In this document: one piece after another, positions 5,621-61,101 of the stretch
Numbering within the stretch: the first letter of the stretch is position 1
Layout: every line of letters starts with the position of its first letter
DNA from: a virus
Taxonomy: Duplodnaviria; Caudoviricetes
Virus record (IMG/VR): IMGVR_UViG_3300046695_000002
Span: 1 to 61,313 of that record
DNA length: 61,313 nt
Reading direction: 5' to 3' (one strand)
Program-made: the position numbers and the translations under genes
The notes under the pieces: generated by a model
Seen by the model: the letters and a program-made list of their open reading frames with translations, nothing else
Database searches by the model: none
Told to the model about the DNA's origin: nothing

Positions 5621-5964
5621 CGATATCAAAAGAAGAATTGAAGAGATGGTTTACTGAAGAAGGTAGGGTAGGGGAATTAAGGACCGGCTTAGAATTCATT
5701 CGCCGATCTGGCGTACTTGATTTACTCAGACGGGCCGGTTTGCCTGTTATTATTAATCAAGGGTCTGATTTAAACGTCATGGCTGGGCAAGCTCATTTCT
5801 CGGCGGGGTATCAGATGGCACTAGATTATCTAGTCAATTTCGAGAAATGGTTTGATACTGATGAAATAAGTGGACTTCTAGGCTCGCCTGATTTTGGAAG
5901 TAAGGAAGAAGCACTTAGGGCCGGTAATTTGAAACCAGAAGATTTTAAAGGTGAATTAACATGA
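5617..5964 (+). CDS. hypothetical head-module protein
   Basis: ATGA overlaps with both the portal and scaffold genes. Confidence 0.7.
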   Translation: MTISKEELKRWFTEEGRVGELRTGLEFIRRSGVLDLLRRAGLPVIINQGSDLNVMAGQAHFSAGYQMALDYLVNFEKWFDTDEISGLLGSPDFGSKEEALRAGNLKPEDFKGELT

Positions 5965-7256
5965 CTATCACGGGCGGTTCTAGTGTCGCCAACATGAGCT
6001 TTATTGCAGATAAGCTGAGTGGCATGGCCAGTCCTTTTGATGCCCCTAAAACGAATGCTGTGCCTCCAGCTCAATCTCAACCTCAAAGCCAGCCCGAAGC
6101 CGCTCCCCGATCTAATCCTTTAATTCAAGGCAATCCTAGCCAAGGCTACGCTGATGCTGTGAAGTCAGTAGATAGACCTAGTATAGAAGTGCCTAGTTTT
6201 CTGGAAGAGGAGCCTAAAGCCCCAGAACCGCCTCCAATCGAAGCTTCCGATCAAGAGCATGACAAGGAACTGCCTTCCGAGGCTTCTATTGAGAACTGGA
6301 ATAAGTTCCGGGAATCTTTAAAAGAACAGCTCAAAGTAAACCGGGAGCTTGAAACTAAGTTTCAAGAGACATCTAAAAAACTAGATAAGTTCGAGAAAGG
6401 TGAAACTGTCCCTGACATCATAAGGGCTAAGGATGAGCGTATTCAGCAGCTGGAACCCTTTGAAAAGATTGTTAGTTTAAAACTTTCACCTGAGTATCAG
6501 GAGAACTTTGTTAAACCAGCTTTAAGCTTGAGAGGCGAGCTTGAGAAGATTGGGCAGGACTATGGTGTGCCTGAAGAGCTCATGCATCAAGCAGTTGGGA
6601 TTGAGAATAGAAAAGAGTTAAATAATTTCTTATCTCAGCATTTTGATGATGTAGGAGGATTAGAGGTAAAGAGGATTGTTACTGAGCTTCAAGATCTAGG
6701 CACTCAAGCCCTAGAAGCCGAGAAAGAACCCGCACAAGCGTTACAGTCTTTAAAAGCGCAGTATCTTGAAAGACAAGAAGAGGAAAAAAGAGAAAGAGCC
6801 CAGACTTTCGAGACGATTGCTAAAGACGCTTGGCAGAATGCTTTGGAGAAAACTAAAGCTGAAGGTGCTTATAAGGAACTAATTCTTCATCCAACGGATA
6901 CTGATTTTAATAAAAAGGTAGTCGAGCCTATTCAGTACCGGGCCTCTGTTCAATACGGGGCCTTGGTCAAGAAACTATCTGAAAATGGGCTAAAGACTTT
7001 ACCCCCTGACTTAGCAGCCGGATTAGCCAGAATGGTTCAGCTATCTATTGGAGGAGCTTTGGTAATGGACGCTAAACGACAAGCTGAGGCTGAACGTAAC
7101 GCCGTGATTCAAAACACAAAAAGAACTAATGGTTATATGCGTCCCACGATTGGAGGGAGTAACGGTTCAGCTCATGAAACTAAAACTCAGGCTCAGCAGC
7201 CTCTTCTAAATCCAAGGACTGCCGCTGAACAAGCCGCTCGGATCTTCAATAAATGA
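5961..7256 (+). CDS. capsid scaffolding protein
   Basis: P/Q/E-rich disordered N-terminus and coiled-coil body; directly precedes the capsid gene. Confidence 0.65.
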   Translation: MTITGGSSVANMSFIADKLSGMASPFDAPKTNAVPPAQSQPQSQPEAAPRSNPLIQGNPSQGYADAVKSVDRPSIEVPSFLEEEPKAPEPPPIEASDQEHDKELPSEASIENWNKFRESLKEQLKVNRELETKFQETSKKLDKFEKGETVPDIIRAKDERIQQLEPFEKIVSLKLSPEYQENFVKPALSLRGELEKIGQDYGVPEELMHQAVGIENRKELNNFLSQHFDDVGGLEVKRIVTELQDLGTQALEAEKEPAQALQSLKAQYLERQEEEKRERAQTFETIAKDAWQNALEKTKAEGAYKELILHPTDTDFNKKVVEPIQYRASVQYGALVKKLSENGLKTLPPDLAAGLARMVQLSIGGALVMDAKRQAEAERNAVIQNTKRTNGYMRPTIGGSNGSAHETKTQAQQPLLNPRTAAEQAARIFNK

Positions 7257-7286
7257 TTGACACTTCTAGGCACATGCGCGAATCAT
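7257..7286 (+). promoter_or_regulatory. sigma70-like promoter for the capsid gene
   Basis: TTGACA (7257-7262), 18-nt spacer, AATCAT (7281-7286) in the intergenic gap. Confidence 0.5.
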
Positions 7287-7433
7287 GGCCTTATCGACAA
7301 AACTCTGCGTCGTTAAACTTGAGTATACAAGGTCATCGCCGGCAGCGTTAAAGCCTCTTGTAGAAAACCAATAAGTTCTTACTAGGGCAAATTCCTATTA
7401 GCCCCGTATTGTGTTTTTCTATTCGAGGCCAAA

Positions 7434-9305
7434 ATGACTTGTATAGCACCGCATGAGGTGAGTGAAGCTTTCATTGCTAATATCCCCCTCATCCAATCCA
7501 CCATTCGAGACATGACTCTTCAATCACCTAACTGGTTTAGGGATATGTATACCCCTACGCCATGGCCGGAGGGTGAAGGTACTTCCATGCAGCAAATTAC
7601 CTTTAGAGGTGAGCTGCCGGAAGTTGAAGAGGGTTTTGATTCATGGGCGACTATTGACGATCCATCAGGCTGTGGAGATGTGTGCGCACCTAACTGCTCC
7701 TACAATATGTACACGATGGGCGGCCATTCGATGCAGTCTAAGCTCACCCGGCTTATGTCGAAGGATCTCAGGACGCCTGATTATTGCGTAGCTGCTATTC
7801 AAAATACCCGGCAATACCGGGAAGTCTTTTCTCAGATAATTCAGAATCTTTATAACCAAATTAATTTCCAGAAAGAGATCAATATTGGTCAGAATTATCT
7901 GACTGGTATTGCCAAGAAATACGTCATGGATTCTGAAGGCTTTAAACCTAATCCTGAAGATCCGTATGCATACCGGCCTAAAGGGACGGCTACACTGTCA
8001 GCTCTTAACATTACTGCGCTTGAGTTTATGTATGAAGTATTGAGGCGTATGCCAGATGTCGTGCCCTACGATATTCAGAATAGCATGGCTGTGTACGCAA
8101 TGGTGGCGTCACCTCAGATGATTGCCAGGATGACTAGGGACGATCCGTCTCTTAGAGCTGATTATCGAGCAGCGGCATCTAGTGGAGGGCAGTATGCCGA
8201 TAATTTGATTAACCGGTATAACTTCACTTCAACTCTTAGGGACATGTTTTTTCCTGTTCCTTATCTATGGCCTAGACGTTTCCGGTACGATTCCGGCAAT
8301 AACAAGTGGGTTAGAATATTGCCTTGGGTTAAAGGAGTACCCGGAACAGTAGGCACATTCGGAGGCATGAATCCGAACTATGAAGACCCGCGAGTTGCGA
8401 CCCATGAAGAAATTTTATTCCATGGCAGAGATCCTTTCTCAGTCTTCTACCAAACCCTTGTCGAATCAATTGGAGAAGGAACGAACTTTGGACCAGAGCC
8501 AGGTGGATTCTGGGACGTGCTTCAGTGGGTTAACCCGCAAACACGAGACGATCCGGGCCGTCGTGAAGGATTTTTCTTCACTACGGCGCGTATTGGCATC
8601 AGCGCCGACAATTCCGAAGGAGTCTTCGGATGGTTAGTGCCGCGTCCGCCAATGCATCTTGGAGTTGCGTTTTACCCCAATCCGATTGCACCACCTGAAA
8701 CTCCGGGAGCTACTACTAACGTTGTACCTGATGTGGGTTGTCCTGTGCCGATCATTGAAAGCTTGACTGCGCATTTAATTACAGCTGGAAGGTACTGGCT
8801 TAAATTGTATGCGCCTGTTGATGCCGCGGCTACGGATACTATTCAACTTGGTCACTCAAATGGTGGCTATGTGAATGCAGTAGTTGTAACTGCAAGTACA
8901 GATAAGACTGTATTTGAAGTTACTATCTCTGGAACATTGCCAGTTTGTGATAGGTGGGTATCTGTGTACACGGGTGAGACGTTAGGGTGTTCGGCTAGAG
9001 TCGAGCATTTCTCCGTTGATCTTGCTGATAACACTAGACTTGACCTTGTACTTGATAGACCAATCAAAGCTGACACTAATGCAGATACGGTAACTTTGAC
9101 TTACGGTGATGGAACGCAAGCTTCAGCGACTGTAGTTGGAACTCCGAATATGCTGACTAACGCCTGGAAGGTAGATATTGGAGGTACAGCATTTAGTAAC
9201 ACTGTCGCTGGTGTTGTTGAAATCTGTGTACCGACTGCAACTGATGCAACTTGTCCTAGCTGTGCAACTGCATTGACTACAGTTACTCAGTGTACGGAAG
9301 CATAA
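7434..9305 (+). CDS. major capsid protein with ~210-aa C-terminal extension
   Basis: Follows the scaffold, has its own promoter and a downstream terminator; ~405-aa core then a Pro-rich linker and beta-rich Cys-containing tail. Confidence 0.8.
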   Translation: MTCIAPHEVSEAFIANIPLIQSTIRDMTLQSPNWFRDMYTPTPWPEGEGTSMQQITFRGELPEVEEGFDSWATIDDPSGCGDVCAPNCSYNMYTMGGHSMQSKLTRLMSKDLRTPDYCVAAIQNTRQYREVFSQIIQNLYNQINFQKEINIGQNYLTGIAKKYVMDSEGFKPNPEDPYAYRPKGTATLSALNITALEFMYEVLRRMPDVVPYDIQNSMAVYAMVASPQMIARMTRDDPSLRADYRAAASSGGQYADNLINRYNFTSTLRDMFFPVPYLWPRRFRYDSGNNKWVRILPWVKGVPGTVGTFGGMNPNYEDPRVATHEEILFHGRDPFSVFYQTLVESIGEGTNFGPEPGGFWDVLQWVNPQTRDDPGRREGFFFTTARIGISADNSEGVFGWLVPRPPMHLGVAFYPNPIAPPETPGATTNVVPDVGCPVPIIESLTAHLITAGRYWLKLYAPVDAAATDTIQLGHSNGGYVNAVVVTASTDKTVFEVTISGTLPVCDRWVSVYTGETLGCSARVEHFSVDLADNTRLDLVLDRPIKADTNADTVTLTYGDGTQASATVVGTPNMLTNAWKVDIGGTAFSNTVAGVVEICVPTATDATCPSCATALTTVTQCTEA

Positions 9306-9312
9306 TTAAAGT

Positions 9313-9349
9313 AAAGTAAGGGGAAGAGAACTTCCCCTGCTTTATCTTT
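9313..9349 (+). terminator. intrinsic terminator after the capsid gene
   Basis: AGGGGAAG-AGAA-CTTCCCCT hairpin followed by GCTTTATCTTT. Confidence 0.65.
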
Positions 9350-9364
9350 CTAGGAGTCACGTAA

Positions 9365-9763
9365 ATGTTACTGATAAATGAAGGCTTTACTTATGCCTAT
9401 GAAGGCAGCCAAAGCATTGGAGGAGATACGACTGTGGCGGATCAAGGAGTCTTGGGAAGAATAAAAGGTACTTACAACGGATCTAACCAGTCTGTTGTAG
9501 CAGCCCCAGGCGCCGGCAAGAAGATCGTCGTTAAGGCGCTTGTCATTTCAGTTGAAGATGCCGGAACTGATGTTCAGTTTAACAGCCGGACAGGAACGAC
9601 TAATACACTTGTAGGACCCAACTTAGATTTTGCTGCTAATAACTTAGCTGTTTTACCGTACACTAGTGATGGTTGGTTTGAGACATTGGCTAATCAAGCT
9701 CTGGTTATTACGTCAACTGGAAATACAGATCTACTGGGGACGTATCGGGTTGTGAATGCCTAG
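9365..9763 (+). CDS. small beta-sandwich virion/decoration-like protein
   Basis: Strong RBS AGGAG; paralogous to 9814-10197 and 45513-45905. Confidence 0.75.
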   Translation: MLLINEGFTYAYEGSQSIGGDTTVADQGVLGRIKGTYNGSNQSVVAAPGAGKKIVVKALVISVEDAGTDVQFNSRTGTTNTLVGPNLDFAANNLAVLPYTSDGWFETLANQALVITSTGNTDLLGTYRVVNA

Positions 9764-9813
9764 AGTGCAGGGAGAGAGCCCGGCTCCTTTAGATTTTTAT
9801 GCATGAGGGCGGT

Positions 9814-10197
9814 ATGAGATCATTAAAATTAGCAGTATTGAGTTTATTTCTATGGACTTTTTCTGCCTTTAGTCAGGATATAGGCATACGTTACTTTCAA
9901 GGTAATTATAACGGTACTGATCAGTCTATTATAGCTACTCCGGGATTAGGAAAGAGATTGTGCGTTAGGTCTCTTGTCTTATCAACGGAAGATACTAACA
10001 CGGACTGGAGATTCCTAAGTAAACCTACTGGTGCTTCCACAGCTTTCATACCAAATATAGATTATCCATCTAATTCAGGAATCGTATTACCGCCTGATAA
10101 TACTTGCTGGTTTATTTTACCTGAGAATACAGCTTGGGTAGTTACGACTAATAACCCAGTAGATATCTTTGGTACGTATAAGATTGTTCCAAAATAA
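9814..10197 (+). CDS. paralog of the preceding protein with a Sec signal peptide
   Basis: MRSLKLAVLSLFLWTFSAFS|QD; mature part aligns with the 9365 ORF (GxYNGxxQSxxAxPGxGK, LVxSxED, LP..WF). Start re-called to ATG 9814. Confidence 0.75.
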   Translation: MRSLKLAVLSLFLWTFSAFSQDIGIRYFQGNYNGTDQSIIATPGLGKRLCVRSLVLSTEDTNTDWRFLSKPTGASTAFIPNIDYPSNSGIVLPPDNTCWFILPENTAWVVTTNNPVDIFGTYKIVPK

Positions 10198-10206
10198 TGG
10201 TACCGA

Positions 10207-11736
10207 ATGTTTAAGCGGAAGATTTTATTTGTAGTATTAAGTGCATTTTCCGCTTCTTTAGTGTTTTTAGTTTTTAGCTCAACTCAGGCAATTGCACAAT
10301 CTGATTATGTTAATTCCTTTCAACCTGTAGAGATTACAATCCCGGCGGGTTCGACTAGTGCAACTGCTACCATTACATCAGTAGGGTCTAGTGCTTTTAT
10401 TTTGTACGGGGGTCAAAGAACCTCAATAAGTGTCGTACATAATAAAGCATTAGGAAGGATCGAGTTAACTAATTCTACTACTGTAACAGCTTATAGAGAT
10501 GCATCTGATGCAACAGCTACTGTAACAGTTAGCGGTACAGTTATAGATGCCAAGTCTACTATTGTAACTGGGATCCAAGTAGGGACTATTACCATTGCTG
10601 CTAGTTCTACTTCAGGAACAGCTACTATTACGAGTGTTGATACAACGAAAAGTGCTGTTCATTTTCTTGGCATGACGACTAACAGCACTGCTAATAATAC
10701 AGCTACTAACTACCCTAGATTAGCATTAACTAACGCAACCACTGTTACAGCTACAAGAAATAGTTCGGCAGCGACTACAGTAACAGTTGGTTATGAGGTT
10801 ATCACGTTTGCATCGGGTGCTATTCAGTCAATTCAACCTATAACACATTCAATAACAGATACTAATACAAGCTCTACTAGTACAATTACTAGTGTAACTA
10901 CTTCTAATGCTTTTTTACTTTGGGGAGGATTTACTTGTTCCTCCTCTAACTGGGATCGGACTGCGGTTTATTCGACTCTTACCAATGGTACAACGGTTAC
11001 TTTTACTAGAAGTGGTACTACTAGTGCAGCTAGAAATGTAAATTTAACAGTTGTTGAATTTGTAAGTGGAGTGCTTTCTCAAAAGCAAACAGGAAATACA
11101 TCTCTTGCTACTGTGACTTCTGCTGATACCACTATAACATCATCAGCATTAACTAGAAGTGTTGCATATACGACAGGGTTTAGTTCTGATCAAACAGGTG
11201 CAGTACAGTCAGATGTTTCTACAACTGTTAAACAGTTTGATGCTACTACTATTCGATCTCAAAAAGGTACTACTACTGGAACATCTTCTGCTGGGTGGGG
11301 TATTCTTGAATTTAACTTAAGTCCTACTCCTACTCCTACTATTACCCCTACGTTTACACTTACACCAACGAATACACCAACGAATACTCCTACAAATACT
11401 TTTACCCCTACTATTACACCTACTATTACGCTTACACCAACGAATACTCCTACAAATATTCCTACAAATACACCAACGAATACTTTTACCCCTACTATTA
11501 CACCTACGTTTACGCTTACGCCAACGAATACTCCTACTATTACACTTACACCTACTATTACACCTACGTTTACGCTTACGCCAACGAATACTCCTACAGT
11601 AACACTTACACCTACGCCAACGAATACTTTTACCCCTACAGTAACACTTACACCTACACCAAATGTCACAGCTACTCCCACTGTAACGGCTACACCAAAA
11701 AGGATACTAAGACGTACTATGGGAGTTGGGCAGTGA
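10207..11736 (+). CDS. secreted-type S/T-rich repeat protein with Pro-Thr linker
   Basis: Signal peptide ending AIA|QSD; four ~87-aa repeats (Q...TI...TATITSV...LTNxTTVTxxR...VxEF); ~125-aa PT stretch. Confidence 0.8.
11323..11697 (+). repeat. coding low-complexity Pro-Thr repeats
   Basis: Repeated ACACCAACGAAT/CCTACTATTAC units encoding TPTNTPT/TLTPT. Confidence 0.9.
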
Positions 11737-12299
11737 AAGCACTTTCATTCGAAGGTTTTGTAAATCTTATGGAGGAAAAGAAATATAGAATTTCGGTTGA
11801 AGGGGAGTTGAATATAATAGGGTATAGAAACAGATTTGGCAGGGCTAACTATTTTGACGATGTGATTTCAGTTTATCAGAATAAAGCAACAGGTTGGAAA
11901 GAATGGCATTACGAGGCAACTACACTACCTGGCACTCCCAGCCTTTTAAAGCCGGTTAATTCAAAAGGGGCTGCGATACTTGTGCCAGGGCAGTATATTA
12001 ATGCCTATGCTATCGGGTTTCACAGGAATAAGTACAAGGCTTTAATACAGGTAAAGCCTGTCAGAGTGTACAGAGACAGGGATAAAGATGGTGTGCTTGA
12101 TATTGACGAGGCTAGTATCGAGACAGGGTTGTTCGGAATTAATATCCATAGAGCTAGTTTGAATAATTTAATCGTAGGGCCGGATAGCGCCGGCTGTCAG
12201 GTCATTCATAAAAGAACTGATTATAATGAGTTTATATCTCTTTGTGACGCAACTAAAGAACAGAAGAATAGGTTCACCTACACGTTAGTAGATCTCTAG
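11733..12299 (+). CDS. putative endolysin, L,D-transpeptidase (YkuD)-like His/Cys motif
   Basis: GINIH-x12-SAGCQV catalytic-like motif; PGQY and GxHxxKYxAL motifs of a phage cell-wall enzyme family. Confidence 0.55.
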
Positions 12300-15300: not shown

Positions 15301-15924
15301 AAGAGTAACTTCACGGTCCCGGCTGCAAATACCTCAGTTGTTCTTAAAGTTAGTGATACTTCAATGCTGTATGTAGGTGAAGGTATAAAGATAGGGCCTG
15401 GTTATTTTCAGATCGTTGATATTTTAAGTTCAGACAGTATTGAAGCTCAGCATAACGGGATGAATACGACTGTAGGCTTATCCATGGTTGCTACTCATCC
15501 ATCTCAAGGTTGTTCCCAGTATCCTATAACTCCTGCTGGCGTGGTTTCTCTTCAGATTACGCCAACAGTTAAAGGCAGGGCTGCAAATGGAACTGTAGTA
15601 AATAATTCAGTGACTCTGACAGGATCTAGTAATTACTTAAGCTACGGATTTTCAGGTCCTAGAAGATTAGTTATGGATATTTCCATTGAAGCTACGATTG
15701 CAAACAGTCCTTATGGATTGAGTATTAGCTTACCTAAAACAAGTAAGACTAGTAACCCGGCTATACCGGCTTTTTCAGCTTCTTTTTATGATGGTACTAA
15801 GTGGATTGTATTGGCGACAGTTTTAGCTTCAAGTGATTTATTTCTGTGGAAGCCTGACAATACTGTAATTACTTCAGCGAGCGTAATACTTAGAGTAAGT
15901 GGTTCTTACGAGGCTAGTTCATGA
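12313..15924 (+). CDS. large adhesin/tailspike: beta-helix, four Ig-like repeats and C-terminal anchor-like domain
   Basis: G8-like start (ITSAATGNW..W.GGV.P), parallel beta-helix residues, four ~93-aa repeats TFTGP..G.V..AS..FTVTPN at ~14050-15160. Confidence 0.75.
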   Translation: MATITSAATGNWATGANWVGGVAPVAGDLAIIANTHIVTIPVSTTVTVGTAQPTGTTVFAIDVQAGGQLVNNGTFNCRGNFRCSNSNTTRSYIQGAGAPFNFDFTATTDPTNQRYDFIQPSQYPGTQPSAQINGTAGSHATFTAIGGGKGEFTGTGANYFSLLEAYYCDFSNLGSASRNMITPSITGDGSSDPGTKFIIENCTFNNCGPINTNGVHVDSRAVFRLKNNKWTNSLQGYCLRTDSYGARLGSSSERRIEGNTLDKRPQFYSPSDMVIKNNFIPDGWLTTAGVNPWQEFSGNTIRITGTSFNDPPVNGPFVNNLIAFDAAVTNPHLSSVGVFSNASTYLVQGNVFKFTGSDATGDCITIGSPATPITISVLGNIVLPNESGESTGTLLSALGNANVTLIIDHNTAFLGTGGGVALGETYAGHANMVTSGRSNLFWDTSARGYKFYDSGTDDTVSNLAASGILDYNGGYNVVAGSNLKGYHHLEFSSGAPGAHDVSGNPNFVDVNADFDTWDGSLGGAGTFAAAFTRLRNDPTLSASLLSYIRNGFAPANVIYQNTGHDSTTIGATPFSGTSTATTFTLTGPASGLVNTASTNFTVTPNGNYTGTVTPTATGGGTFTPTTLTWSNTSTAQTFTYTPTTSGSKTVAIVNSGGLSNPGSIAYTSTPTAATGFTFTGPTNGLVGVASTNFSVTPNGSFTGTVTPSSGGGGGSFTPSSLTWSNDNSVKTFTYTPTTEGSKTISITNNAALTNPADLTYIASSGVATTFTFTGPTEGEVGLVSAPFTVTPNAAYSGSVTPVAIGGGTFSPSSLIWTASNASQSFTYTPTSEGGKTISLTNSQAITNPAALPYTALPRSASGFTVSGPTVGYVGEASTDFTVTPNGRYTGTITPSAGSGGGTFTPAYLYWSESSASKMFVYTPDTEGAKSITLATSGSLLPPAIITYNASKRVTTSLTCTPDPCDYYPFNQPGCNTAVSYGGMPGPYPCSPAVPILKSNFTVPAANTSVVLKVSDTSMLYVGEGIKIGPGYFQIVDILSSDSIEAQHNGMNTTVGLSMVATHPSQGCSQYPITPAGVVSLQITPTVKGRAANGTVVNNSVTLTGSSNYLSYGFSGPRRLVMDISIEATIANSPYGLSISLPKTSKTSNPAIPAFSASFYDGTKWIVLATVLASSDLFLWKPDNTVITSASVILRVSGSYEASS

Positions 15925-16283
15925 GTAAGTGTGATCCTTACCCCATAGAATTTAAACAGCCTTACTATACTCAGCCGTGTGAGGAGTTGACGGAAGATCA
16001 TGCTAGGCACGTCATATTACATCAGTATGTAGGCTGTGTGAGAATTCCTAATCAATGGGCAGTACCGGCTAACAATTCAGGCATTAAATTACAACTCCCG
16101 GCTGTAGTTGATTTAGTTGTTGGATCCTGTCTTTGGAATCCTGACTTTGGTTATTTTTTGATTACTAGTTTTGACAAGCAAGGCCAGATTGTAACCATAG
16201 AAAGGAAAAGTACAGCTACAACAGCACAGCCGGGGACACTTGTGCCTTCATGTACTAAGTTTATTTTTGCGCCAAACATATGA
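15921..16283 (+). CDS. small tail-fibre-associated protein
   Basis: Shares the WxVP...GYF.I...PGT.VP domain with both neighbours; ATGA-coupled. Confidence 0.7.
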   Translation: MSKCDPYPIEFKQPYYTQPCEELTEDHARHVILHQYVGCVRIPNQWAVPANNSGIKLQLPAVVDLVVGSCLWNPDFGYFLITSFDKQGQIVTIERKSTATTAQPGTLVPSCTKFIFAPNI

Positions 16284-17956
16284 GCTGCAAACCGTGTGGA
16301 CCTAGCATTACTTCTGGACCTAAACCTTATTATGAAGAGGTACAGAAAAATGTTGTTCAAAATCATGAAACTATAATCCAACAAACTAAGCATGCAGTTG
16401 GTGTTCTTATCTCTGAGCCTTGGACAGTTCCAGAACTAGGAGAAGAAATAACAGTACACATTGAAGGAGTGACTGTAATTCCAATTGGAATACAGCTTCA
16501 TAGTCCTCAATATGGATATTTTAGAGTTGCTCATTGGAATCCTCACACAGGACAGGCCGGTATAGTTAATGATGGGATTGTTGGAACCGCTGAACCTGGA
16601 ACCTTTGTTCCTAATTTCATACCTTTTACACCTACTCCTAAACCTTGTTGTCAAGATGATACATCTACTTTTCTGCCTTTCTTAGCAGAGAACTTTATTG
16701 CTCCTCAAGTCAATCTTAGTAAAGATGTAGATGTTACTAGTGTCTTTGGTTTAATGATTGGAAACTATGTCCGAATTGGAAGCGGCTTATACAGACTTGA
16801 TGAAATAAAATCGAGTAAACGAATACGTATATTTAATAAAGGAGCCGGTCATGCTCCTGGTGCTCAAGTATTAGCTAAAGATTCTAACGGAGAGTATCAG
16901 TATTTACTTACTACCGAAGCGTCTTATGTCTGTACTGCTGATATAGATTCAACTAGTGGCAGGTTAATTATTTGCGATGCGGGTAGTCAGAAGATCATTA
17001 CGGGATCTGCGGTTGGGCAGGTCATGAAACTTTCTGATCCTGTGACTGGATTAGCTGAATATGCATTGATAAGTAGTTCAAGTATTAACGATGGAGCTGT
17101 CACGACTGCTAAAATTGCTAATGCAGCTGTTGATAATAGTAAGTTAGGAAATGCTTCGGTTAATACTGCCAAGATTGCAAACGGAGCAGTTGATAACTTA
17201 CAGCTTGCAGATGGATCGATCAGTGAAAGTAAACTTCAATTCAATAGTGTCTCTACAGCTATTATTCAAGTTGATGCTGTCAGGACTGATCGTCTTTTAA
17301 ATAATGCTGTAACAAACTCTAAACTTGCAGATGATGCAGTTACAGCAGCTAAGATATTAAACGGTACTGTCGGTACGCTTGAAATAGCAGATAATGCTGT
17401 TACTAATATAAAAATTGCAGACCAATCTATTACTTATGCGAAGTTAGCTTTAGGTGCTGTAACCTCGGATATTATTCAAGATGGTTCCGTTGCTACTATT
17501 GACTTAGCCAGTGGTGCCGTAACCAGCGATAAGCTTGGTTTAAATTCAGTTCTGCCTGAACACTTCGGTCCTTTAGGAGCTATTGGTGGATTCAATTCTA
17601 CATTAGCTATAGATACAGCTGAAGGCGGGTTTTCCGCAGCACCAGCAGCGTATTATTACAGAATAGGCAATTTAATTCTTGTCCAGGTAGTTGCGGCAGG
17701 GACAACTGATACAGGCTTTACTGAGCTTAAATTCAGCCTTCCCACGGCCACTAGAAACGAAGGCTTAAGTACAGACTCAGAATGGCCGGCTTTTGTAACT
17801 AGACCTATTAATGCCGCAGGTGGAGGATTTGTTTCAGCTAAGACTGTTTGGGGAGTGGGCGGCGGAACAGGTGGCTACATACAGTTTCTCTTCGTAGGCG
17901 TTGGAGTGGGAGTAGCCGTTAATTTTCAAGGCTGGGGAGTGTATCCATACAAATAA
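16280..17956 (+). CDS. tail fibre with 10-residue repeats
   Basis: About 15 tandem (D/N)xAVTxxK(I/L)A decapeptides at ~17085-17555; C-terminal YYRIGNLILVQ fibre-tip-like domain. Confidence 0.8.
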   Translation: MSCKPCGPSITSGPKPYYEEVQKNVVQNHETIIQQTKHAVGVLISEPWTVPELGEEITVHIEGVTVIPIGIQLHSPQYGYFRVAHWNPHTGQAGIVNDGIVGTAEPGTFVPNFIPFTPTPKPCCQDDTSTFLPFLAENFIAPQVNLSKDVDVTSVFGLMIGNYVRIGSGLYRLDEIKSSKRIRIFNKGAGHAPGAQVLAKDSNGEYQYLLTTEASYVCTADIDSTSGRLIICDAGSQKIITGSAVGQVMKLSDPVTGLAEYALISSSSINDGAVTTAKIANAAVDNSKLGNASVNTAKIANGAVDNLQLADGSISESKLQFNSVSTAIIQVDAVRTDRLLNNAVTNSKLADDAVTAAKILNGTVGTLEIADNAVTNIKIADQSITYAKLALGAVTSDIIQDGSVATIDLASGAVTSDKLGLNSVLPEHFGPLGAIGGFNSTLAIDTAEGGFSAAPAAYYYRIGNLILVQVVAAGTTDTGFTELKFSLPTATRNEGLSTDSEWPAFVTRPINAAGGGFVSAKTVWGVGGGTGGYIQFLFVGVGVGVAVNFQGWGVYPYK

Positions 17957-36124: not shown

Positions 36125-36265
36125 TTATTGAACACAAATATAAGTCCAGCTACAGTTATTATCAGCGTCGCACACGCATACTGGATTTAAAGATGTACAA
36201 CCAATAGGTGGTATCGGAGGTATCGGCGGAATTCCACACATAATAGCAAAGAGAAAAGTTATCAT
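36125..36265 (-). CDS. 46-aa six-cysteine peptide
   Basis: Own translation: MITFLFAIMCGIPPIPPIPPIGCTSLNPVCVCDADNNCSWTYICVQ; RBS AGGA; exactly fills the gap before the 36124 start. Confidence 0.7.
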   Translation of the reverse strand: MITFLFAIMCGIPPIPPIPPIGCTSLNPVCVCDADNNCSWTYICVQ

Positions 36266-41033: not shown

Positions 41034-41708
41034 TTATGTTGACAAGACTTGCCTGCCGATAGGTACGCAAGCCTCCCCTTCCTGCTTCATAAGGTATTCT
41101 AGATCATTATAGGATATCTTACAGTCACCATTCACTCCCCAAGCGGGGCCCCAGCTGTTCCTAAGAATAATGAACTTTCCGACTACATTTACGCCGCGAG
41201 CTAGAATACAATGACCACCGGCTAATGATCCTGATACATGAATGAAGCCTTCCTTATCTGGCTCGTACATCTTATCATACCAAGCAATGCCTAGAACTAC
41301 CGGTCCTTGATAGCCGAGAGTGGCTACTATTTCTTCAATACTGAATGCCCATTTATAGGAATGAATTGCGTCAGGATACATAGCTTGAACAGCTTTAATG
41401 CCAGCTATTACTGAAGTTCCAGAATAATCTTGTCCTGGCCATTGATCTAAAGTTTGAGCTTTCTTATAGACAGCAAATGCAGAGTCATAATTAATATTAG
41501 GAATAACACTAGGACGAGCAGCTAGTTCGTGACTCCAACCAAACCCAACACAACTCCCTTGATCCTTTTGATCAAGTGTTATTCCACATGCCCATCTATA
41601 TGAACGTGGCCTAACTGCCCGGCCTGGAAGGATAGCTGTAATTCTATGCTCTTTGGATCTAGGATCGAACTCAATGAGCCGGCCTAGTCTAGGGTCTTTA
41701 TTTGACAT
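41034..41708 (-). CDS. papain-like (C1) cysteine peptidase
   Basis: DQKDQGSCVGF (oxyanion Gln and catalytic Cys), GGHCI and RNSWGPAWG..G; start re-called to MSNKD. Confidence 0.88.
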   Translation of the reverse strand: MSNKDPRLGRLIEFDPRSKEHRITAILPGRAVRPRSYRWACGITLDQKDQGSCVGFGWSHELAARPSVIPNINYDSAFAVYKKAQTLDQWPGQDYSGTSVIAGIKAVQAMYPDAIHSYKWAFSIEEIVATLGYQGPVVLGIAWYDKMYEPDKEGFIHVSGSLAGGHCILARGVNVVGKFIILRNSWGPAWGVNGDCKISYNDLEYLMKQEGEACVPIGRQVLST

Positions 41709-41892
41709 ACGTAACCGTGTGAGTACCAAAAGGTAGTGCTAATACACCGAAGATGCCCAATATAATAACAATTACTAGAATAACCAGTACTACGTAGATC
41801 AACTGCTTTATTTTTGGGTCTATCTGCAAAGGCATTAAAGGAAGAAGAACACCTACAACTAAAAGAAATATCAATAATCCGATTAGGCTCAT
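41698..41892 (-). CDS. small two-TM membrane protein (Thivi_2564-like)
   Basis: Two hydrophobic helices separated by IDPKIKQLI; RBS AGGAG. Confidence 0.7.
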   Translation of the reverse strand: MSLIGLLIFLLVVGVLLPLMPLQIDPKIKQLIYVVLVILVIVIILGIFGVLALPFGTHTVTYVK

Positions 41893-47573: not shown

Positions 47574-47872
47574 TAAGGCTTGGTCGCTTCTTGAGCTTGG
47601 ACATCTATGCCCTCAGCTTCATCGGCTTTTTCGCTAACGAGGGTGAGGATTTGATCTAGATCGGCTTCTGAAATAACGCCACCACTAGCAATCTGATCGC
47701 GCAATGCCACGATAGTTTCTTTAATTGCAGTGAGTTGGACTTTAGTATCCCCTTGAGCCGCGGTAATACGATCAACGGCTGCTTCAAAATCTGTCTTACT
47801 TACCATTACAGTACCCTCCAATAACCAATTTCTTAAAGATCTCCGGATTTTCCGAAGTATACAGTGGATCAT
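47573..47872 (-). CDS. hypothetical coiled-coil protein
   Basis: Coupled ORF. Confidence 0.6.
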   Translation of the reverse strand: MIHCILRKIRRSLRNWLLEGTVMVSKTDFEAAVDRITAAQGDTKVQLTAIKETIVALRDQIASGGVISEADLDQILTLVSEKADEAEGIDVQAQEATKP

Positions 47873-58665: not shown

Positions 58666-61101
58666 ATGGAACAAACTGAGGTTGTTACTGATGAACTGCG
58701 CTCTTTTTTTGATCGGTTTAGCTACATACTAGTCACTATATCCATTCAGCCTGAAGTAGAAGGTTCTCAGGTACCTTCAGGTAAATGGTTTTCACAGGCC
58801 AATAGAATAAGAGCTGTAACTTTAGAGACTTTTTACTCGGCTCGTTTTCAGCTAGAGCTTCAAAATGCTAACTTAAACGGCTGTGCTATTTGGTTCATGG
58901 TGAATGAAGGGAATGGCTTACCAGCTCCCGATGCTGAGCCGGGCATACTAAATTGTGGCAAACGAGTCAATGTAACTAAGTTTACAGCCCTCACTATCGA
59001 TACAGATAACGCTGACTCTAAGCAGCTCCTTGCCAAATTGACTGAATTAAGTCTTCTTCCGCATGTCCTTACGGAGACAAGTCCAGGAAAATATCATTTC
59101 TATTTTTTTCTGGAACCAGAGAAAGCTGAAGGAGATTCCATTCTTCAATTCAAAGCTTTACAAAAAAAGTTAGCTTCTCTCGTTCCTGATCTAGATCAAT
59201 CTCTTACTGATATAAACCAAGTTTTACGTGTACCAGGATTTTTCAATCTTAAGCCAGGTAGATTACCCTTTAAGGTTCACGTTCTTAGATCCGGCATACA
59301 CGCTCTCTATAACTTAAAGTTTACTTTTGATCGATTAGAAGCACATTTGTTTCTAGATAGCTTAGTTAAGGCGAATGGTAATCATGTTTCTGCTTTCACT
59401 AAGTTTGAGTTTCCAACAGGGTATTTAAAAAAAGGTGAACGTAGAAAAGAGATTACTCGTTACATTGAACATCTAATGGGTAATCGTTTTGCACTAGATG
59501 CACCCGAGATTGATTATTGGCTGGCTGTAGATGGATATGTTCACAATTATATTCAGCCATCCGAACGCGCTGATTTTATTACCGGGGGATCTAGAAGACC
59601 TAATATAGAGCAATACTTTCATGATCAACGAGCTAGAAGATTAAAGCTTAAACTAGAACGTGATACTCAGCTCGCGTTGAAGCAATTCGATCACATCACT
59701 GCTGTTGAAGAATCCCGGCTTCCAGATGAATTTTATTTATCATTTCCAGGCGACTTAGGCCGGGTGACTAATGAAATACATGCATTCGGTCCTACGATTT
59801 CATTAGAGCTTTGTTTTGCTACGGCTTTATGTGTGTGTGGTGCGCTTAAAGCAGAAGTATTTCGTTTTGAAGATGCTTGGCCCATGGTGAATGGTATTAT
59901 TATCGCACCACCAGGCGCGGGTAAATCGAGTTTAAAAGGAGCTATTGAGAAGATACTTACCGAAGCTGGTTTATTAGGCCGGTTCCCTCAACTTTTAGAT
60001 TTCGCAAAGACAGTTCAAATGTTGCATTTGAATTTATATTCAGCAGGTGGTGTAGGCACGACTCTAGTAGATGAGGCTGGGGATTATATTTCCAGCATTA
60101 AGAATAAGAACTCCTCTAGTCATACTCAAGATTTAAAGAAGTATTATCGAGAAGCAACTACCGGCCCTTCTGAAGGAGTGAGGTTAACTCCGGGGGGTGC
60201 AGTAGCGTCTAACTATCCGCCGATTACTAATGGATTTCTCTCTTTATGGTTATTTATTCAGCCTGACAAATTTAAAGGATCTTTGTCTTTAGATGATATG
60301 AGTGATGGATTTCTGCCTAGATTCTTAGTTTTTAGAGGAAAATCAAGTTTCAAGTTTTTGTCCAAACAAAAGAATAAAGCTTTCGTTCCCTCGGCAGACT
60401 TCAAGATCTGGATCGAGCAGTACACTCAGCTTTTGGGGAATAGGGATCTAAAAGAAGTCTTGGAACGGATTAGGATAAGTGTCGTTCAAGGACATGGCCG
60501 GGGTAATCCTACAGGAGCGGTCAAGGAAGCACAGAGAGAGGCTGTGTACCAGCTGAGGACAGAAAATAGACTCACCCGGCAGATGATAGAGGTTAAGCTA
60601 ACTGACGAGTCTGAGGTGGCCTACAATGCCTATATGCTGGAATTGCAAAATAAAGTGGATGCTATCTTGGAAGAGAAGAATGAGTCGGATCCAAGGTTAG
60701 TGATTTTCAAGCGAGCCAAGGAAATGATCAATCGGCTTATTGGCTGTGGATCACCTATTAACGGAGTGGTCGAACTTGATCTGATGGAAGCTATCATCAG
60801 ATTTCATAGATTTGATATGGAACGCTTTTTTACTGGTGAGTTAGCTGCCATGACTCAAGACCAGGATATGGAAGACGTAATCAAGGCCGTGAAGTTAGCC
60901 TGCAAAAATAAGAATAGACCGGTCAGCATCGGCGAAGTGGTAAAGGCTTTGTCTTCTGGCTATCGGCCTAGAGCTTTCGAACAGCTTTTGAAAGAAGCAG
61001 TACGGCAAGGCCGTGTGTGGGAAGATGAAGTTCCTCATTCGAGAGAACGGAATAGGAAGGTCTTGTACTACCGGCCCCCTGTAGCTGAAGAAATAATCTG
61101 A
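58666..61101 (+). CDS. RepB-type (AEP) primase fused to a DUF3987-like P-loop helicase
   Basis: AEP motifs IDTD, ETSPGKYH.Y and VLRVPGF; Walker A APPGAGKS, Walker B LVDEAG, DGFLPRF; wHTH-like C-terminus. Confidence 0.85.
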   Translation: MEQTEVVTDELRSFFDRFSYILVTISIQPEVEGSQVPSGKWFSQANRIRAVTLETFYSARFQLELQNANLNGCAIWFMVNEGNGLPAPDAEPGILNCGKRVNVTKFTALTIDTDNADSKQLLAKLTELSLLPHVLTETSPGKYHFYFFLEPEKAEGDSILQFKALQKKLASLVPDLDQSLTDINQVLRVPGFFNLKPGRLPFKVHVLRSGIHALYNLKFTFDRLEAHLFLDSLVKANGNHVSAFTKFEFPTGYLKKGERRKEITRYIEHLMGNRFALDAPEIDYWLAVDGYVHNYIQPSERADFITGGSRRPNIEQYFHDQRARRLKLKLERDTQLALKQFDHITAVEESRLPDEFYLSFPGDLGRVTNEIHAFGPTISLELCFATALCVCGALKAEVFRFEDAWPMVNGIIIAPPGAGKSSLKGAIEKILTEAGLLGRFPQLLDFAKTVQMLHLNLYSAGGVGTTLVDEAGDYISSIKNKNSSSHTQDLKKYYREATTGPSEGVRLTPGGAVASNYPPITNGFLSLWLFIQPDKFKGSLSLDDMSDGFLPRFLVFRGKSSFKFLSKQKNKAFVPSADFKIWIEQYTQLLGNRDLKEVLERIRISVVQGHGRGNPTGAVKEAQREAVYQLRTENRLTRQMIEVKLTDESEVAYNAYMLELQNKVDAILEEKNESDPRLVIFKRAKEMINRLIGCGSPINGVVELDLMEAIIRFHRFDMERFFTGELAAMTQDQDMEDVIKAVKLACKNKNRPVSIGEVVKALSSGYRPRAFEQLLKEAVRQGRVWEDEVPHSRERNRKVLYYRPPVAEEII

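Follow-up and report, generated by a model that had tools for sequence, protein, structure and literature searches.

Candidate Sec-exported versions of virion appendage modules beside the presumed capsid gene of a putative Bacteroidota phage

Among the phage proteins known to be exported are exclusion factors, lysis proteins and morons. Llp of phage T5 and Cor of phages T1, phi80 and N15 are receptor-blocking lipoproteins encoded beside tail or receptor-binding genes; they inactivate the receptor from the periplasmic side and so shield progeny and infected cell alike. T4 Sp and P1 Sim are leader-bearing periplasmic exclusion proteins that act against incoming phages. Phage fibres and tailspikes are modular, with exchangeable N-terminal anchor domains. 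The accessible part of a study of Porphyromonas gingivalis phages describes five proteins whose function is unknown and whose signal peptides obey the Q-rule, that is, with glutamine (Gln) at position +1 (Matrishin et al. 2023, PMC10367356), and in the accessible part of the hankyphage study the phage targets of diversity-generating retroelements are without signal peptides (PMC6199706). Here we describe two adjacent leader-bearing genes, 9814-10197 and 10207-11736, in the virus record IMGVR_UViG_3300046695_000002, the whole of which (61,313 bases; completeness estimate 97%) was analysed and is referred to as the window; genes are named by their first nucleotide. Together with the leaderless gene 9365-9763 they make up a variable cassette of appendage genes, with the presumed capsid gene on one side and an endolysin-like gene on the other, and the products of the two are predicted to be exported relatives of virion modules.

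The positions of these three open reading frames (ORFs), and of a further leader-bearing gene at 47869, agree with the initial annotation of the record, as does its description of 9814 as a signal-peptide-bearing paralog of 9365. The two products are 40% identical (E 7.7e-24; 41% over 98 residues in a pairwise alignment), and that of 9814 begins with a Sec-type leader of 20 residues, in which a basic n-region is followed by a hydrophobic core of 11 residues and by A-F-S, with Gln next. The longest frame of this gene begins at 9799; the ATG at 9814 is the likelier start, because it has GAGG 6–9 nt upstream and corresponds to the Met with which the orthologs P0002 and P0003 start. A leader is also present in the closest relatives (P0002, P0003, P0127, P0128 and P0136). 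The 509-residue product of 10207 has the architecture first proposed for it, with a signal peptide, four repeats and a Pro/Thr stalk (Table 1); its leader of 30 residues runs from MFKRK through a core of 18 residues to A-I-A, which Gln follows. Leaders were detected by a rule-based scan and by eye, as a basic n-region, an uncharged core and small residues at -3 and -1, and the scan marked as signal-peptide-like three of the 73 window ORFs (9814, 10207 and 47869) plus one 64-residue membrane protein. The prediction that 9814 and 10207 encode substrates of the Sec pathway and signal peptidase I is well supported by the comparisons given below, and we consider export of the leader-bearing proteins highly probable.

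Export had been proposed in the initial annotation, and is supported by leader conservation with drift, a cysteine (Cys) pair and Gln at +1. Among 9814 orthologs the leader is 35–45% identical, as against 61–79% for the mature part. Within 154 sequences of the knob family, the domain family to which 9365 and 9814 belong, both Cys residues of 9814 are found in five of the 17 members that the scan flags as leader-bearing (four of the 17 being false calls by eye) and in none of the 137 leaderless ones; read by eye, P0127 has both Cys residues and the truncated P0136 the first alone. The carriers form one or two clades, so the pair reflects few independent events, and its distribution fits a disulfide formed solely outside the cytoplasm. 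Disulfides had been suggested for the exported proteins at large; the confinement of the Cys pair to leader-bearing members supports one in 9814, and the other proteins are without such support. The leader-bearing relatives P0127 and P0136 have Pro/Thr tracts, of a kind common in extracytoplasmic proteins, within or after the knob. In P0127 about 70 Pro/Thr/Ala residues are inserted mid-knob. Gln follows the predicted cleavage site in 9814, 10207, L168:11275-12105, L170:10575-11429, L171:10740-11747 and L084:852-1607, and is at +1 in five of six independent families, the exception being 47869. According to the accessible part of a published survey, Gln occupies +1 in a mean of 71% of signal peptidase I substrates in Bacteroidetes, where it is cyclised to pyroglutamate, and in typically <20% in Chlamydiae and Spirochaetes (PMC5837995).

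The initial annotation had raised the alternative that translation starts downstream of the leaders, and no plausible internal start with a ribosome-binding site was found. In an unrelated contig of siphovirus-like character, the protein L020:13155-13577 has 75% identity to a tail-module protein of L010 that has no leader, and carries 18 N-terminal leader residues in addition; this leader must be translated, because the start codon of the orthologs is replaced there by Ala. The L020 protein belongs to phrog_16194 and was compared with L010:11313-11678 and L023:10435-10791. Two further proteins, L020:3582-3980 and L022:4956-6935, also begin with leaders, and leader gain on structural-module proteins may be widespread. 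As to the type of export signal, the predicted cleavage sites of 9814, 10207 and 47869 have no Cys on or close to them and thus no lipobox, and the C-termini of the window proteins match no family of Pfam or NCBIfam, type IX secretion system C-terminal domains included, a search that a divergent domain could escape. The exported proteins of the relatives likewise match no Pfam family. Spanin features were sought in the exported proteins and none was seen, there being neither a lipobox nor a C-terminal hydrophobic segment; the proteins are predicted to be all-beta.

Both domain families occur mainly in the structural modules of other phages, and are leaderless there, in keeping with the earlier label of virion-type proteins. 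The knob is a domain of about 85 residues, mostly C-terminal in proteins of 100–590 residues, of which the longer have N-terminal parts that are repetitive and fibre-like by eye; its profile matches 373 representatives at E <= 0.001 as well as both window paralogs. Mature 9814 is modelled as a small jelly roll with a mean predicted local distance difference test score (pLDDT) of 96.5. The structural matches of this model (Z 7.2–7.8; root-mean-square deviation 2.7–3.4 over 91–98 residues) are at the chance level of the tool and include the turret of Sulfolobus turreted icosahedral virus (STIV), the Ena pilins of Bacillus, the cement protein of phage KHP40 (7dou, Z 7.5), and XepA of PBSX and YomS of SPbeta, none of them with sequence similarity. 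XepA and YomS were considered as lysis-cassette analogues of the knob and dropped, since their Z of 7.2–7.3 is chance level. A complex prediction of mature 9814 with the C-terminal extension of the presumed capsid protein (residues 425–623) scored 0.02, a value that speaks neither for nor against binding. Neither the knob nor the four-repeat family has a Pfam, PHROGs or NCBIfam name, and PDB sequence searches with the cassette proteins were empty. Close knob relatives are absent from the viral contigs and genomes searched, and one 1.6-kb metagenome contig (L084) has a 9814 ortholog, followed directly by a second leader-bearing gene of another kind. P0006 has no match in genomes.

The four repeats of 10207 are 17–48% identical in pairs, and an AlphaFold model based on 48 homologs contains four like beta units (mean pLDDT 95.8, predicted template modelling score 0.93). 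The stalk comprises 125 residues encoded by tandem DNA repeats of period 12–84, and is followed by a 12-residue basic tail that runs to the stop at 11736; the last 138 residues of the protein hold 61 Thr and 28 Pro. Fold searches with the four repeats returned low template modelling scores alone (about 0.3 for the PCSK9 C-terminal domain and about 0.2–0.3 for viral tail proteins). The family has at least 425 homologs at E <= 0.001 among 8,000 candidates scored, with E down to 9e-97. Among the 120 matches listed, of the 425, most are about 355 residues long, start straight at the first repeat and are leaderless; about seven have a classical leader, and seven more a different, less hydrophobic extension (by eye). 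In P0015, P0041, P0102, P0103, P0106 and P0114 a weakly hydrophobic extension ending in K-D/N-E-x-G-F precedes the usual family start. In viral contigs the repeat unit is present in one, two or four copies, alone or at either end of longer proteins, and about six of 84 such ORFs are leader-like (four by the scan, and those of L022 and L018 by eye). At 11 annotated loci the four-repeat gene lies after baseplate and tail-fibre genes, between the head-tail adaptor and the neck, after the portal, or beside a 'virion structural protein', and no match in cultured phages was found by tblastn at E <= 1e-5. The 10207 gene is the sole four-repeat copy in the window genome (profile match E 1e-123). None of the five other records with a copy judged leader-bearing by eye, of which four have a completeness estimate of 100% and one of 70%, has a leaderless four-repeat twin.

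Relatives of the window were found from the endolysin-like protein and then by alignment of two presumed capsid proteins. Four are syntenic, L088 (the same contig as L169), L168, L170 and L171, with portal-like proteins 50–55% identical to that of the window, and they have the same gene order of portal, scaffold, presumed capsid, cassette and tail genes. These labels are given in the window from gene order, size and conservation alone, the presumed portal, scaffold and capsid having no Pfam, PHROGs or PDB sequence match. For the gene that the initial annotation called the capsid gene, position, size and conservation (48–52% identity to the syntenic genes of L088, L168, L170 and L171) agree with that name, which is not backed by any Pfam, PHROGs or PDB sequence match; the best family hint is an E of 0.06 to major-head phrog_334 for the L171 ortholog, and the 623-residue protein has no detectable relative in any cultured phage. 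It ends in a C-terminal extension of about 190 residues, with four terminal Cys (598, 607, 610 and 620; window 9228–9305) that are kept in L088:3073-4935.

The cassettes of the relatives begin with a small gene with a conserved N-terminus, which the N-terminus of 9365 weakly resembles. All four contain at least two proteins in which a common Cys-rich N-terminal motif (C-x2-C ... aromatic-R/K ... L-C; no family name) is joined to different distal domains, and one of these, in L088, is 580 residues long with fibre-type repeats. The first cassette gene of L168 (L168:9918-10232) matches a K1 capsule lyase C-terminal domain (PF24146, E 2e-17), which points to capsule-directed appendages in this phage group. 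The Cys-rich module is likely to be a common virion anchor, and it might pair, through metal or disulfide, with the four Cys of the presumed capsid protein. Since leaderless knob proteins (P0004 and P0129-P0135) carry the same motif at the N-terminus, a Cys motif with a knob and a leader with a knob appear to be alternative builds of one protein. The motif is absent from the window in every frame; the cassette there is composed of one leaderless knob protein and two proteins predicted to be exported.

A survey of relatives for signal-peptide genes in the same slot, which the initial annotation had suggested, is positive in three of the four. In L168, L170 and L171 one cassette protein of 276–335 residues has a clear leader with Gln at +1, and the leader-bearing ORFs number 1/19, 1/18 and 1/18 in these loci, always in the cassette, and 0/18 in L088. 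In the window, L168 and L171 the lysis gene comes immediately after the leader-bearing gene, and in L170 the two are one gene apart; the lysis gene is of the 188-residue endolysin-like family in L088, L170 and L171, and a different gene, of 104 residues, follows the cassette in L168. Identity between the exported proteins of L168 and L171 is 35%, and they have segments in common with leaderless fibre proteins. The L168 protein is in addition a paralog of the Cys-motif protein L168:10261-10875 (27% over 91 residues, pairwise E 6e-5), so that a leaderless paralog lies alongside the leader-bearing protein in two of these phages.

The cassette genes of the window are spaced by 9–50 nt or overlap, and lie inside the late operon. 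Promoter-like sites around them are in no excess (11 found, 11.5 expected), and with the tight packing this suggests that the cassette proteins are made late and in quantity. The leader-bearing gene at 47869 lies apart, in the replication-gene arm. Of its earlier description as a signal-peptide protein with an FN3-like domain, the first part stands, as both homologs (P0276 and P0277; 72% and 69% identity) keep the leader, with a diverged leader sequence; the Atlas fn3/Ig-like hints are weak. The 16-residue leader of 47869 ends in V-K-A before Asp.

The host probably belongs to the Bacteroidota, as three independent hints suggest: the Q-rule, the scarcity of Shine-Dalgarno-like sites and the genomic relatives of the endolysin-like gene. 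Shine-Dalgarno-like 4-mers are found upstream of 14 of 49 window genes, with 12% in random windows. For the endolysin-like gene 67 of the 80 best genomic loci are named as Bacteroidota, mostly Chitinophagaceae and Cytophagales (four genera checked), and the remaining 13 are Ignavibacteria, Calditrichota and scattered others. The DNA polymerase was also tried for naming the host, and was set aside because its identity of about 25% is to diverse phages from which no host can be derived.

The reading that we favour, as a plausible though tentative one, is that the exported proteins are soluble or envelope-associated binders that would mask a receptor or glycan of the host envelope and act in exclusion, a signal peptide having replaced the virion anchor in 9814 and 10207. 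Both proteins, a small jelly-roll knob and a four-fold beta repeat, would be modules that otherwise belong to virion fibres, with the signal peptide standing in for the N-terminal module of the leaderless cassette proteins. They would be transcribed alongside the late structural genes and exported to the periplasm, where cleavage would expose an N-terminal Gln that is probably converted to pyroglutamate, as happens in Bacteroidota, and where 9814 would gain its disulfide. Being exported, they would be outside cytoplasmic assembly, and because they are missing the N-terminal modules of the leaderless cassette proteins we take them for free twins rather than particle parts. A periplasmic end location is suggested by the signal peptidase I-type site together with the absence of a lipobox, a detectable type IX sorting domain and a barrel. 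The free proteins would recognise envelope glycans or receptors of the kind bound by the phage's own appendages, and with the receptor masked on the infected cell superinfecting phages would be excluded and fewer progeny lost on debris. The initial annotation had offered two outcomes of export, and of these host-surface remodelling or exclusion is the one favoured here, attachment to particles at lysis being weakened by the lack, in the leader-bearing proteins, of the N-terminal module of their leaderless neighbours. The broader proposition, that phages of one Bacteroidota group regularly produce their own virion appendage modules in a Sec-exported form, with a signal peptide swapped for the anchor, either to decorate the particle or to mask the receptor, is one that we regard as possible but doubtful.

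Several observations weigh against receptor masking by exported twins in a Bacteroidota host. A periplasmic protein has no obvious route to a surface receptor; if the proteins stay periplasmic, masking would need glycans in periplasmic assembly or the inner face of an outer-membrane receptor. The idea of a twin fits the knob and the L168 protein and fails for the four-repeat protein, of which the genome has no leaderless copy. The exported function appears to be dispensable, as L088 does without a leader-bearing gene, and the location of such a gene beside the lysis gene in the other phages could mean a role in lysis. In 47869 and its homologs the +1 residue is Asp, Val or Ile and never Gln, so that the Q-rule does not extend to this gene, and the Bacteroidetes-type promoter motif (in its consensus form) is unenriched in the window, with 2 found and 1.76 expected.

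Other roles for the leader-bearing proteins draw in part on the same observations. Decoration of the particle, in which oxidised and folded periplasmic proteins would bind finished particles just after the holin has breached the inner membrane or once lysis has occurred, is in our view unlikely, yet it would account for the presence of both domain families in structural modules and of the genes within the late operon. The four-repeat gene is the sole copy here and in all five other leader-bearing records, so the exported form must supply the protein if it is needed on the particle. The window is also without the Cys-motif cassette proteins of its relatives, which the two exported proteins may replace; in L168, L170 and L171, however, two Cys-motif proteins are retained and one exported protein comes on top, which looks more like an extra function than a replacement. 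The resemblance of the knob fold to the phage cement protein 7dou is one among many and, at Z 7–8, at the chance level of that search. With the N-terminal modules of the leaderless neighbours missing, no docking element is evident, and open-access texts yielded no earlier case in which a Sec-exported protein joins the particle of a tailed phage. An accessory role in lysis, in which the exported protein would aid the endolysin-like enzyme by attaching, for instance, to peptidoglycan or the outer membrane, we judge improbable. The adjacency to the lysis gene in the window, L168 and L171 (one gene off in L170) and the stop/start overlap in the window would suit it, as would a Pro/Thr stalk long enough to span the periplasm, and the scan of small window ORFs revealed no spanin-like pair. 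To our knowledge, spanins are rarely recognised in phages of Bacteroidota. The exported proteins themselves, however, have no lipobox, C-terminal membrane segment or coiled coil; they use different fibre-type domains in different phages, which fits host recognition better, and the same domain families are found among tail and neck genes elsewhere. The endolysin-like gene of L088 moreover is present without an exported protein.

Still less probable, to our mind, is a moron-type host factor, that is, a surface or periplasmic protein that benefits the lysogen through adhesion or a change of the envelope. The exported P. gingivalis phage proteins are proposed, in the accessible part of that study, to modify the host outer membrane (PMC10367356), and the composition of the window dips to 39% G+C in 10001–12000, a dip that the Pro/Thr repeat tract explains. 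No integrase or repressor family matches among the 48 larger window ORFs scanned, and the genes belong to the late operon, are preceded by no more than a weak hairpin, show no excess of promoter-like sites and occupy a slot conserved in three of four relatives. The least probable of the explanations, and hardly to be expected, is that there is no export at all, the hydrophobic N-termini being uncleaved membrane tethers or mis-called starts and assembly proceeding from the cytoplasmic side. The leader of 10207 is indeed long enough, at 30 residues, to be a signal anchor. Against this stand the combination of Gln at +1 with small residues at -3 and -1, seen in five of six families, the restriction of the Cys pair to leader-bearing knob members, the lack of a downstream start with a ribosome-binding site, and the L020 leader, which lies where the start codon of its orthologs has become Ala and must be translated.

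Table 1. Coordinates of the cassette and of other features in the window, and of the Cys-motif proteins in its relatives.
Feature	Coordinates	Strand	Basis and remarks
Presumed major capsid protein, 623 residues	7434..9305	+	Position after scaffold-like gene, size, conservation
Terminator-like hairpin directly after presumed capsid gene	9319..9338	+	8-bp stem, 5 G-C pairs, T-rich tail; consensus match only
Leaderless knob-family protein, 132 residues, no Cys, first cassette gene	9365..9763	+	Paralog of 9814; knob profile A3, E 3e-38
Predicted exported knob-family paralog	9814..10197	+	Signal peptide 9814-9873; mature small jelly roll 9874-10194, two Cys
Signal peptide of 509-residue protein, 30 residues, A-I-A before Gln	10207..10296	+	
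Four tandem beta repeats of about 85 residues, residues 33-371	10303..11319	+	Repeat alignment and AlphaFold model
Pro/Thr-rich stalk, residues 373-497	11323..11697	+	Composition and tandem DNA repeats
Endolysin-like gene, 188 residues	11733..12299	+	phrog_3000 E 4e-32; endolysin phrog_33083 E 5e-10
Third leader-bearing gene, 130 residues	47869..48261	-	16-residue leader, Pro-rich linker, beta domain; replication-gene arm
RepB-type primase gene	58666-61101	+	
Cys-motif proteins of relatives	L088:5349-5798, 5798-7540; L168:10261-10875, 10887-11288; L170:10119-10574, 11542-11997; L171:9719-10162, 10171-10743		

The gene layout of the window is that of a podovirus-like phage. One arm is a long plus-strand run of large genes, with tail-fibre matches at 16280 and 19837 and a 710-residue protein with an SLT domain, and the replication arm, on the minus strand, codes for a family A DNA polymerase, a DUF2800 nuclease, an SNF2 helicase, an Enc34-type single-stranded DNA binding protein and a Dam methylase; no tRNA genes were found in the 61,313 bases. 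Tail-fibre genes of the window (15921-16283 and 16280-17956), and tail genes of L088, L168, L170 and L171, open with Cys-x2-Cys and then P-Y-Y. The start of the endolysin-like gene (11733) overlaps the stop of the 509-residue gene (11736), and its frame is open backwards through the Pro/Thr repeat (11562–11736) in a Tyr/Thr-rich reading. A -1 frameshift joining the stalk to this frame was considered and rejected, as the openness follows from the composition of the repeat and the endolysin-like gene has its own GGAG and GTG.

The record starts with a perfect tandem repeat (1–196; 2.8 copies of a 69-bp unit), which could represent a genome end, an origin or the edge of an assembly. The 64-residue membrane protein noted above (41698-41892, minus strand) has a weak match to the Thivi_2564 family (E 2e-5, under the family's cut-off) and overlaps the start of a papain-like peptidase gene in the replication arm (41034-41729, minus strand; Peptidase_C1, E 1e-5); it could be a holin or another membrane effector. 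A 46-residue, Cys/Pro-rich ORF with a hydrophobic start (36125-36265, minus strand) may encode a small secreted peptide, or be no gene at all.

If the exported proteins decorate the particle, which would be the more remarkable result, the virion would be completed outside the cytoplasm with oxidised and possibly glycosylated proteins, and the rule that tailed-phage virions are built from cytoplasmic proteins alone would be broken. Masking would provide a simple route by which a phage's own binding domains are turned into protection for infected cells and progeny, with a periplasmic twin of the knob intercepting the receptor glycan during its periplasmic assembly and so clearing or masking it on the infected cell. 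The Q-rule signature could in either case serve as a cheap marker of the host phylum for uncultivated phages, and the recurrence of leader gain in unrelated phages (L020, L022 and others) suggests a wider phenomenon that is as yet unsurveyed.

No report of Sec leaders on tailed-phage fibre modules was found in open-access texts, and supplementary tables, such as those annotating the P. gingivalis phages, might hold cases. As far as the literature was searched, there is no earlier account of exported copies of virion fibre modules that occupy a conserved cassette slot, and neither decoration at lysis nor periplasmic interception of a receptor glycan was found described for tailed phages.

Among the known systems, the P. 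gingivalis proteins are alike in being phage-encoded Sec/signal peptidase I substrates of Bacteroidota with Gln at +1 and a proposed action on the envelope. They are unlike in belonging to temperate phages, and the accessible part of that study describes no origin from virion parts; the comparison is by description. The proteins described here differ from them in consisting of fibre and knob modules, in occupying a conserved slot of the late operon and in having, in two phages, a leaderless paralog alongside. T5 Llp and Cor are small signal peptidase II lipoproteins unrelated to the phage's own binding protein, whereas the exported cassette proteins have signal peptidase I-type sites, no lipobox and homology to virion modules. 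T4 Sp and P1 Sim are unrelated to them in sequence and in domains, and are expressed early or from the prophage, outside the late structural operon. The arrangement is like that of modular fibres and tailspikes in that the cassette proteins of the relatives carry a common N-terminal module on different distal domains, with the difference that one choice of 'anchor' here appears to be a secretion signal.

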